64,000 nt of DNA from Patescibacteria group bacterium (GTDB lineage Bacteria > Patescibacteriota > Patescibacteriia > Magasanikbacterales > GWA2-37-8): positions 1 through 64,000 of the forward strand of contig SCQK01000004.1 in NCBI GenBank assembly GCA_004321885.1. Reading direction: 5' to 3'. Positions within the stretch are counted from its first letter, which is position 1, and the number at the start of each line of letters is the position of its first letter. This document shows, piece by piece, positions 529-1,324 of this stretch. The position numbers were made by a program, and so were the translations under genes. Under the pieces are notes generated by a model that saw nothing but the letters and a program-made list of their open reading frames with translations, did not search any database and was not told the DNA's origin.

Positions 529-653
529 ATGGTTAAGCGATTATTACTGTTCACACAGTGAACAGGTGTAACCCTTGATACTACCATATGTTACCCTATG
601 GTGTTAACTGTACAAAAACTTGACAAAAACGACAAATATGATATAGTGAATTC

Positions 654-751
654 AGAATTACTTGGCGAAGGCCCGCCGTATGGCGGAGATTGGCCTCGGC
701 GCGAGCCGGGGATAGCCAAGCTTCATAGAACCCCGCGAAACGGGGTTTTTA
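654..751 (+). ncRNA. DUF3800-associated small RNA, copy A (own promoter and terminator)
   Basis: Promoter: TTGACA 620-625, 16-nt spacer, TATAGT 642-647. Closing helix CTTGGC 661-666 / GCCAAG 715-720 encloses hairpin CCGCC-GTAT-GGCGG and hairpin CCTCGGC-GCGA-GCCGGGG (694-711). Terminator AACCCCGCGAAACGGGGTTTTT ends at 750 and overlaps the stop of the convergent DUF3800 gene. Confidence 0.6.
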
Positions 752-1324
752 TGATTTCATTTCGCCGGATTCGCGCAGATAGTTTTCCTTTTTTGCTCTC
801 GCCATAATTTCCTTCGCGTCGGCTCGCCCCAAAAGCGCGCTTCGCGCGCAACCGGCCCACATATCCGCGAGCCGAATCGCGGGTTCGCTTTCGTCGCGTC
901 TCCCTTTTATCGCCCGCAACGAAACTCCGCTGGCCCGCAGCGCGTTCGTGAGTTCTCTCGCCTTTTTCTTGTCAATGCCGTCTATATAAACACGGGCCTG
1001 ATACGGACTTATCGCCACCTCTTTTATCGCTTTTTCAAGGAGCTTAATAACCGGGAAGAAATATGGAATGGGCTTCCGGTAGCGTGCTATATACACATCA
1101 CCAGCCGCCACTTCCCGAGCCAGCACGAGCTTTAGATATGCTATTCTTCTATCACGGCGCGTCTTATGCCATTTTAACTTGTTTGTCTTTACCTCTTTTT
1201 CAATGTTATTAAGCTGTTCTTTTAACACTCCCTGTTCCTCCGCGCTCACCACCGCCACTACGACGAATATCTCTGACTTCGTATCCTGGCCAGATTCATC
1301 CACATAACAATAGAGTTTTTCCAT
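749..1324 (-). CDS. DUF3800 family protein (copy A)
   Basis: 191-aa ORF. N-terminal YCYVDESGQDT and C-terminal RRDESEPAIRLADMWAG match the two conserved acidic blocks I associate with DUF3800. It is a paralog of 10158..10718. Confidence 0.75.
   Translation of the reverse strand: MEKLYCYVDESGQDTKSEIFVVVAVVSAEEQGVLKEQLNNIEKEVKTNKLKWHKTRRDRRIAYLKLVLAREVAAGDVYIARYRKPIPYFFPVIKLLEKAIKEVAISPYQARVYIDGIDKKKARELTNALRASGVSLRAIKGRRDESEPAIRLADMWAGCARSALLGRADAKEIMARAKKENYLRESGEMKS

Follow-up and report, generated by a model that had tools for sequence, protein, structure and literature searches.

The closest described relatives of the RNAs treated here are the DUF3800-I to -XI, drum and skipping-rope RNA motifs (Weinberg et al., 2017, PMC5737381), which are likewise structured small RNAs (sRNAs) adjoining DUF3800 genes, often with a Rho-independent terminator of their own. 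The DUF3800 RNAs have been a puzzle since 2017, with eleven unrelated folds, one protein family and no function hypothesis. DUF3800 proteins are also described in the literature as accessories of Cas12a2/a3 and Cas13 systems and as the partner in retron type VII, where a reverse transcriptase is accompanied by a DUF3800 effector (Mestre et al., 2020, PMC7736814), and in these settings the domain is likewise without known activity. In this study, we analysed a stretch of 64,000 nucleotides (nt), hereafter the window, from a Patescibacteria group bacterium (contig SCQK01000004.1, positions 1 to 64,000), in which each of three DUF3800 genes is met tail-to-tail by a plus-strand unit of promoter, RNA and terminator. 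The motif of one of these RNAs (C) was already known, and the classes of the other two (A and B) are absent from Rfam 15. The RNA class follows the protein clade strictly, and we tentatively suggest that each RNA might restrain its cognate protein.

A preliminary description of the window had proposed three minus-strand DUF3800 genes, each faced by a TTGACA promoter, an RNA and a GC hairpin with a U run. Both proposals hold: all three genes exceed the Pfam gathering score of DUF3800 (PF12686, 21 bits), and the promoter and terminator sites were found at all three loci. The genes share 24–36% identity pairwise, and the features of the three loci are as follows.

749..1324, minus strand, DUF3800 gene A: 191 amino acids (aa), predicted RNase HII-like, PF12686 37.2 bits
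10158..10718, minus strand, DUF3800 gene B: 186 aa, PF12686 27.0 bits, identical to NCBI EPN28_00685 (Patescibacteria group bacterium)
61336..61878, minus strand, DUF3800 gene C: 180 aa, PF12686 34.0 bits
620..647, plus strand, promoter of RNA A: TTGACA-16-TATAGT, 11/12, TG-extended
10000..10028, plus strand, promoter of RNA B: TTGACA-17-TATTCT, 10/12, TG-extended
61199..61226, plus strand, promoter of RNA C: TTGACA-16-TATATT, 11/12, TG-extended
654..751, plus strand, RNA A: three-way-junction core 661-720, bidirectional terminator 727-749
10035..10146, plus strand, RNA B: core 10044-10116, terminator 10116-10136
61233..61335, plus strand, RNA C: 5' hairpin 61233-61248, DUF3800-II motif 61251-61314, terminator 61311-61330
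727-749, plus strand, terminator-like hairpin of RNA A: G+C stem, then U run
10116-10136, plus strand, terminator-like hairpin of RNA B: G+C stem, then U run
61311-61330, plus strand, terminator-like hairpin of RNA C: G+C stem, then U run

The terminator hairpins lie 0–21 nt from the DUF3800 stop codons, and at locus A the stop codon falls within the terminator U-tract. Their stems are extended by pairing of an upstream A-tract with the U-tract, which is a bidirectional-terminator design. At each locus, RNA and gene together make up a self-contained cassette of two genes, about 0.7–0.8 kb long. The order of promoter, RNA, terminator and gene was found again in more than 100 unrelated contigs, and because the identical layout repeats so often, a chance arrangement is unlikely.

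The region of RNA A (560-820) gave zero matches to the 4227 families of Rfam 15 at E ≤ 10. Its core, on the plus strand, is built from three helices (P1 to P3) and the junctions (J) between them.

661-666/715-720, plus strand, P1 of RNA A: closing helix
667-672, plus strand, J1/2: GAAGGC
673-677/682-686, plus strand, P2
687-693, plus strand, J2/3: AGAUUGG
694-700/705-711, plus strand, P3: GCGA loop
712-714, plus strand, J3/1: AUA

A protein-first scan with gene A led to ten genomic loci, from Uhrbacteria, Saccharibacteria, Paceibacterota, Berkelbacteria, Acidobacteriota and Verrucomicrobia, and in nine of the ten an A-type RNA lies on the opposite strand just beyond the stop codon. In an RNA-first search, metagenome contigs were scanned with a DNA pattern made from the A-type junctions and P2 alone, which matched at least 120 stretches; all A-type counts drawn from this search are counts among the matches listed. 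All but about three are obvious A-type homologues with promoter and terminator in register (at least 117 instances), and A-type RNAs are abundant in metagenomes of candidate phyla, Acidobacteriota and Verrucomicrobia. The consensus consists of P1 (cYYGGY/RCCRRg), J1/2 (GAAGGC), P2 (CYGCC-loop-GGCRG), J2/3 (AGAUUGG), a variable hairpin P3 and J3/1 (AUA or CUA).

That the RNAs would have structure beyond their terminators had been suggested at the outset, together with a check by covariance model and metagenome search, and both were borne out for the A type, with covariation supporting P1, P2 and P3. The covariance model (R1) aligned 95 of the A-type matches, 89 of them distinct homologues, and RNA A scores 66.4 bits with it. 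In the alignment of the 89 distinct sequences, 96.7% of the cells hold standard pairs, against 34–57% in slid controls; compensatory, both-side changes occur in 13 of 16 pairs, and the observed pairing values were attained by none of 500 shuffles. The closing pair of P1 is U-G in 39 of the 89 sequences and pairs on the plus strand only, therefore the transcribed strand is the plus strand. The junction nucleotides are nearly invariant and the helices variable, above all the hypervariable P3, which comes in 87 distinct sequences with stems of 4–9 base pairs and carries a GNRA loop in 39 of 96 cases. RNA A is thus a genuine, strand-specific and structurally constrained molecule, one of a conserved class outside Rfam 15 that is better supported than many catalogued motifs.

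RNA B belongs to a second class outside Rfam: its region (9960-10220) also gave zero matches to the 4227 families of Rfam 15 at E ≤ 10. The parts of its core are listed below.

10044-10048/10112-10116, plus strand, P1 of RNA B: CAGCT/GGCTG, the closing helix by covariation
Plus strand, J1/2: GAAUAC
Plus strand, P2: base CUUCC/GGAAG, carrying a two-hairpin insertion
Plus strand, J2/3: GUG
10099-10101/10106-10108, plus strand, P3: GCGA loop
10109-10111, plus strand, J3/1: AUA

A B-type RNA is convergent to each of the ten B-clade genes fetched, and two additional copies occur in the metagenome locus L113. P1 is paired in 13 of 13 sequences, with double changes in four of its five pairs. This corrects the preliminary description, which had taken CTTCC/GGAAG for the closing helix of B; covariation assigns that role to CAGCT/GGCTG, and CTTCC/GGAAG is the base of an expanded P2. 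The B-type consensus reads P1 (YAGCY/GGCUG), J1/2 (GAAUAC), P2 (UUCCC...GGGUUG, with a GUAU-type loop or, in the window copy, the two-hairpin insertion), J2/3 (GUG), P3 and then AUA or CUA. The B-type terminator is well conserved across loci. The non-coding hairpin CCCCCUUAAAYGGGGG is kept including its loop in the window (10116-10136) and in loci L131, L137, L139 and L142, and the proteins of the loci that share it are only 50–60% identical. The hairpin may have a role beyond termination.

RNA C is a member of Rfam family DUF3800-II (RF02961), which it matches over the full model (1-69), scoring 67.0 bits (gathering score 43.2) with E = 1.1e-11. The expectation of DUF3800-associated RNAs of the kind described by Weinberg et al. 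was therefore sound, formally for C through RF02961 and for A and B as covarying, gene-adjacent RNAs; the proposed Rfam scan itself succeeded for C alone, with A and B matching no family at E ≤ 10. Even at permissive thresholds, Rfam returned nothing but tRNA for RNAs A and B and ten related loci. Assignment of A and B to DUF3800-II was rejected, as the model does not match them: the outline is the same, but the junctions of DUF3800-II are GACAAA and A, in contrast to GAAGGC and AGAUUGG in A and GAAUAC and GUG in B. A single model for all three RNAs was rejected as well. The A-type covariance model fails on B and C even with filters off, and the three are therefore separate classes. With A and B, the DUF3800 RNAs gain two classes. 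Of the eleven published motifs, I, II, V and IX were seen in Rfam, and A or B could conceivably still be identical to a published motif that Rfam lacks.

The plan that the preliminary description had seen in all three RNAs survives as a qualitative outline and fails as a shared model, the A-type model not scoring B or C. Common to A, B and C is the succession of P1, a GA-rich junction starting with GA, P2, P3, (A/C)UA and P1', often with a GNRA loop on P3; common ancestry of the classes is unproven. An 11-mer said to be identical in B and C, GTCCGCGAGGA, does occur exactly twice in the window (10098-10108 and 61286-61296), with 0.02 occurrences expected by chance. B and C have an identical P3 hairpin, and a GCGA loop sits on P3 of all three window RNAs (701-704 in A). 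Among A-type P3 hairpins elsewhere, this loop is rare, being present on 4 of 96. The shared hairpin and loop might result from gene conversion, reflect a partner specific to this host or be coincidental.

The DUF3800 protein is modelled as an RNase HII-like nuclease with an apparently intact candidate set of DEDD-type carboxylates (D9, E10, D115 and D154). The AlphaFold2 model of the gene B protein has a predicted local distance difference test (pLDDT) score of 93 and a predicted template-modelling score (pTM) of 0.89, and its sole strong fold matches in the PDB are the archaeal RNase HII structures 1uax and 1x1p (Foldseek probability 1.0, template-modelling (TM) score 0.55, 18–19% identity), followed by RNase HI and retroviral integrase cores. 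The nuclease-like fold supposed from the acidic motifs was thus recovered by structure prediction and Foldseek as an RNase H-type fold, best matched by RNase HII, which fits statements in the literature describing DUF3800 as similar to RNase H or RNase H2, with its active site rearranged. D9, E10, E42, D115 and D154 are invariant in 64 sequences of the A, B and C clades. A Pfam scan of the three proteins at E ≤ 0.1 matched DUF3800 only and no RNase_HII, DNA-binding or transposase domain; a sequence search of the PDB gave no meaningful match, so that the fold search alone was informative. Weak PADLOC matches were to the DUF3800 of retron type VII (DUF3800_VII, N-terminal) and to PDC-M04A. Several RNA-linked open reading frames (ORFs) are without the N-terminal DE motif and are apparently disrupted at the N-terminus.

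The association between RNA and gene is close in both directions of search. A convergent DUF3800 ORF lies within about 110 nt in 70 of the 120 A-type pattern matches listed, and in a further 17 of them the contig ends before there is room for a gene. The neighbours of A-type RNAs are closest to protein A in 60 of 60 cases (43–71% identity, vs 29–40% to B), a count of proteins reached by the RNA pattern alone, and those of B-type RNAs are closest to protein B in 10 of 10. In these comparisons, RNA class tracks protein clade strictly, without exception. The two partners differ in how often they occur singly. All 23 DUF3800 genes reached protein-first have a convergent RNA, and of the A-type RNAs whose contig could hold a gene (>700 nt), roughly 100 in number, about 21 lack one, with only gene remnants beside four additional A-type RNAs.

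A single genome can hold several classes: the window has A, B and DUF3800-II, locus L016 an A-type and a DUF3800-II-like RNA, and locus L066, in tandem cassettes, A-type, DUF3800-V and an RNA with no Rfam match. In L066 (2610-4561), each of the three cassettes follows a near-identical hairpin and promoter of 72 nt, whose copies are 72–90% identical to the first, yet three different RNAs follow. The middle RNA (about 3477-3590), the one without an Rfam match, converges on a 217-aa DUF3800-like ORF (3559..4212), and the DUF3800-V match scores 41.7 bits. Locus L113 (3943-5040) holds a B cassette together with two RNAs that lack a gene, one A-type and the other a second B-type copy, and locus L108 (1254-1508) two A-type RNAs with one gene.

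The two partners also differ in their promoters. A sigma-70 match of at least 9/12 precedes 81 of 111 distinct A-type RNAs, and in 77 of these 81 the -10 hexamer ends 8–13 nt ahead of P1. Among 19 fully parsed cassettes, the promoter zone of the RNA reaches at least 10/12 in 18, and the 80 nt before the start codon of the DUF3800 gene in one; the mean score of the latter is 7.7, vs 7.2 for coding-sequence background. On these scores, the DUF3800 genes are without a recognisable promoter of their own and the RNAs have near-consensus ones. From this asymmetry, the RNA is predicted to be abundant and the DUF3800 protein weakly expressed or context-dependent. Gene C begins 3 nt downstream of ORF 61882..62751 and is therefore probably co-transcribed with it.

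Several cassettes share homology that stops at their own limits. Loci L027 and L035 are 96% identical over 719 nt with unrelated flanks, the homology spanning from the -35 hexamer to 18 nt past the start codon; L045 and L082, on one contig, are 90% identical over 771 nt, again with unrelated flanks, and L009/L128 and L094/L124 are further cases of cassette-limited homology. The RNA lies 37–55 nt inside the left boundary of the cassette. Cassette B of the window is enclosed by a direct repeat of 96 nt.

9894..9989, left copy: the first 32 codons, from ATG, of the LamG-domain gene 7791..9989
10753..10848, right copy: 99% identical, with the LamG gene's native upstream region after it

This repeat looks like a long target duplication. 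Cassette-flanking repeats were also seen in L037 (69 nt), L075 (115 nt), L124 (63 nt) and L035 (78 nt, 77% identity), and exact flanking repeats of at least 18 nt occur in 4 of 34 cassettes vs 2 of 249 shifted controls. A search for an empty site of cassette B through relatives of ORF 10903..11271 found no orthologous uninterrupted site, because the closest relatives of this ORF are only 54–57% identical. Taken together, these comparisons indicate that the DUF3800-RNA pair is a portable cassette. A phage, plasmid or viral origin was considered and rejected, as relatives were found neither by the A-type RNA pattern in viral contigs nor among viruses by protein profile, nor by tblastn against plasmids and phages. 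In L135 and L136 (721-1410), a tyrosine recombinase (Phage_integrase) gene lies immediately upstream of a B-clade DUF3800 cassette, and such an enzyme could mobilise these cassettes in trans.

For the function of the pair we tentatively prefer, at somewhat less than an even chance, a toxin-antitoxin (TA) or defence-like module in which the cognate RNA binds and restrains the DUF3800 nuclease, an idea already raised in the preliminary description. The sigma-70 promoter would drive an RNA of about 100 nt, consisting of the three-way-junction core and an intrinsic terminator whose hairpin would also terminate the convergent DUF3800 gene. Through its conserved junction nucleotides, the RNA would hold the cognate protein and keep the nuclease inactive, a role akin to that of a type III RNA antitoxin or of the retron non-coding RNA (ncRNA) or multicopy single-stranded DNA (msDNA) that holds an effector. 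Loss of the RNA, by transcription shut-off in infection or by loss of the cassette, would free the putative DEDD-type nuclease to attack nucleic acid, plausibly RNA:DNA hybrids, and cells would stop growing, so that the cassette would behave as an addiction or abortive-infection system. Indirect comparative support for such a module comes from the excess of gene-less RNAs, the promoter asymmetry, the class-specific pairing and the portability of the cassette; also in its favour are the RNase HII-like model with its invariant carboxylates, the weak PADLOC matches and the published occurrence of DUF3800 beside retron type VII, Cas12a2/a3 and Cas13. We favour an antitoxin over a cofactor because of the excess of gene-less RNAs, the promoter asymmetry and the lack of a guide-like single-stranded variable segment.

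Several points weigh against such a module. The cassettes are surrounded by housekeeping genes, not by defence islands; the A-type RNA pattern has 0 matches in viral contigs, the protein profile has no viral relatives, and tblastn against plasmids and phages returned nothing. The excess of gene-less RNAs compares a small protein-first sample with an RNA-first sample drawn by sequence pattern. In the papers searched, neither the DUF3800 protein nor the DUF3800, drum and skipping-rope RNAs are assigned a function, and the searches turned up no binding, toxicity or expression results for any DUF3800 RNA. To our knowledge, the layout is unlike every established RNA-antitoxin system in its convergent, repeat-free RNA and its protein, which is not of the ToxN type. 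Finally, a highly conserved junction is equally expected of the cofactor in an obligate ribonucleoprotein.

Such a ribonucleoprotein, in which the RNA would be a structural or specificity subunit needed by the DUF3800 nuclease, perhaps to process nucleic acids or to serve as an effector in defence, seems to us somewhat unlikely. It would account well for the strict co-variation of RNA class and protein clade, for near-invariant junction nucleotides amid variable helices and for the RNA beside every DUF3800 gene sampled, and Weinberg et al. (PMC5737381) judged the motifs to resemble RNAs with sophisticated biochemical function. However, the sample has many loci with the RNA alone and none with the gene alone, which would be surprising for an RNA of no use without its protein, and the variable part of the RNA is the paired P3 rather than a single-stranded guide segment. 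We consider it quite unlikely that the pair is a mobility module, in which RNA and RNase H-fold protein would jointly insert the cassette of about 0.8 kb or make it home, as an RNA-dependent mobile element of a new kind. The cassette-limited homology amid unrelated flanks, the direct repeats of 63–115 nt around several cassettes (96 nt at 99% for B), the excess of exact repeats over shifted controls and the multiple copies per genome (this window, L045/L082, L066) speak for such an element, but flanking repeats are confined to a minority of cassettes, at variable distance and with 77–99% identity. Moreover, the RNA lies entirely within the cassette and contains neither a variable guide nor one derived from the flanks, the protein, at about 185 aa, is small and has no DNA-binding or transposase domain match, and the tyrosine integrase beside L135/L136 could act in trans. 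A related reading, unlikely in our judgement, is an autonomous, promoter-carrying mini-element of about 0.8 kb that would spread between genomes and sites and duplicate 60–115 nt of target, with RNA and protein as the machinery or the addiction system that would drive and stabilise this spread; it would then be understandable that one protein family works with a dozen or more unrelated RNA folds.

Control of the DUF3800 mRNA by a convergent antisense regulator, either type I TA-like or a simple sRNA, through the shared 3' end or through 5' pairing, is given only a small probability. RNA and gene do converge on a shared hairpin, with the stop codon of A inside the U-tract and only 4–39 nt from P1 to the stop codon, but the overlap is confined to that hairpin, cognate pairing of the sRNA with the mRNA 5' end is no better than non-cognate pairing (p = 0.29, n = 19), and conserved junctions with covarying helices indicate a folded RNA, not a linear antisense. 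That there is no functional RNA, and that the hairpins only terminate transcription from both sides while the similarity upstream of them is due to chance or to a site acting in the DNA, is scarcely credible: the terminators are truly bidirectional in design, with stems extended by A-tract and U-tract, but upstream of them stands a three-way junction that is conserved, with compensatory changes, across several phyla (89 distinct sequences), together with a promoter at fixed distance, strand-specific G-U pairs and the covariation of B-type P1.

The neighbours of the three loci are LamG-domain, RecO, aminoacyl-tRNA synthetase and Nramp genes and small ORFs of unknown kind. Three LamG-domain paralogues, each about 700 aa long and extensively repetitive internally (1811-3889, 5309-7651 and 7791-9989), are interleaved with a duplicated segment of 186 nt (4058-4243 and 7514-7699, 91% identical) bearing two tRNA-Arg genes, and a Bro-N domain ORF lies at 4358..5227. 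Dispersed palindromic repeats of the form GGCTCCA...CCCCGACTNAGTCGGGG...TGGAGCC, resembling repetitive extragenic palindromic (REP) elements, occur at 1764-1804, 7746-7786, 20766-20806, 26349-26389, 36368-36408 and 36461-36501, and the family includes a 93-nt tandem duplication at 36361-36537. A hairpin related to GGCTCCA/TGGAGCC is found within the 96-nt repeat flanking cassette B. The RNase P RNA (37950-38408, minus strand; class A, 131.8 bits) exceeds the length of the model by about 90 nt, and its insertions contain hairpins of the CCCGACUUAGUCGGG type, the palindrome of this dispersed repeat family. AT-rich intergenic blocks of low complexity of the CCAAT/TTGGA type lie at 13469-13580, 22048-22152, 31152-31257 and 31989-32094.

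What the present analysis adds to the catalogue of motifs is a fixed and compact convergent layout in which both partners use one terminator, the strict matching of each RNA class to its own protein clade, the asymmetry of orphans and the evidence for a portable cassette. Three orthogonal RNA-protein pairs in one genome offer built-in controls for the question of toxicity and cognate rescue. If the RNA does restrain the nuclease, the DUF3800 proteins would be a large family of RNA-restrained RNase H-like effectors.

Among known systems, the proposed module resembles the type III TA systems (ToxIN, CptIN, TenpIN), which also are compact, transfer-prone modules of an RNA and a nuclease with class-specific pairs, the neutralisation by RNA being proposed here. 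Unlike them, where a tandem-repeat antitoxin array lies upstream in the toxin operon and is processed by the toxin, a single three-way-junction RNA with its own promoter converges on the gene for an RNase HII-like rather than a ToxN-like protein, and there are no ToxI-like tandem repeats at the three loci. Membership in type I TA was rejected, the proteins being enzymes of 180–191 aa and not small hydrophobic peptides, and the overlap being the terminator hairpin only. Retron type VII shares with these cassettes a DUF3800 with an N-terminal DE motif and a structured non-coding RNA partner; in contrast, no reverse transcriptase lies near the three loci, and the RNAs are not msr/msd-like. The protein resembles archaeal and bacterial RNase HII in its predicted fold, in the adjacent D-E at the N-terminus and in two later invariant Asp residues, but it differs in its identity of 18–19%, in having no Pfam RNase_HII match and in the catalytic rearrangement published for DUF3800, and we know of no RNA partner of RNase HII. 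A last comparison is with the OMEGA systems (TnpB or IscB with omega-RNA) and the bridge RNA of IS110, likewise small mobile units of an RNase H-fold protein and a structured ncRNA. Their proteins are 2–3 times larger and their RNAs have a variable guide or loop reading flanking or target DNA, whereas here the RNA is cassette-internal and convergent with no guide-like segment, its variable region being the paired P3. Like the DUF3800 RNAs, the OMEGA and bridge RNAs were first discovered as orphan gene-associated RNA motifs.

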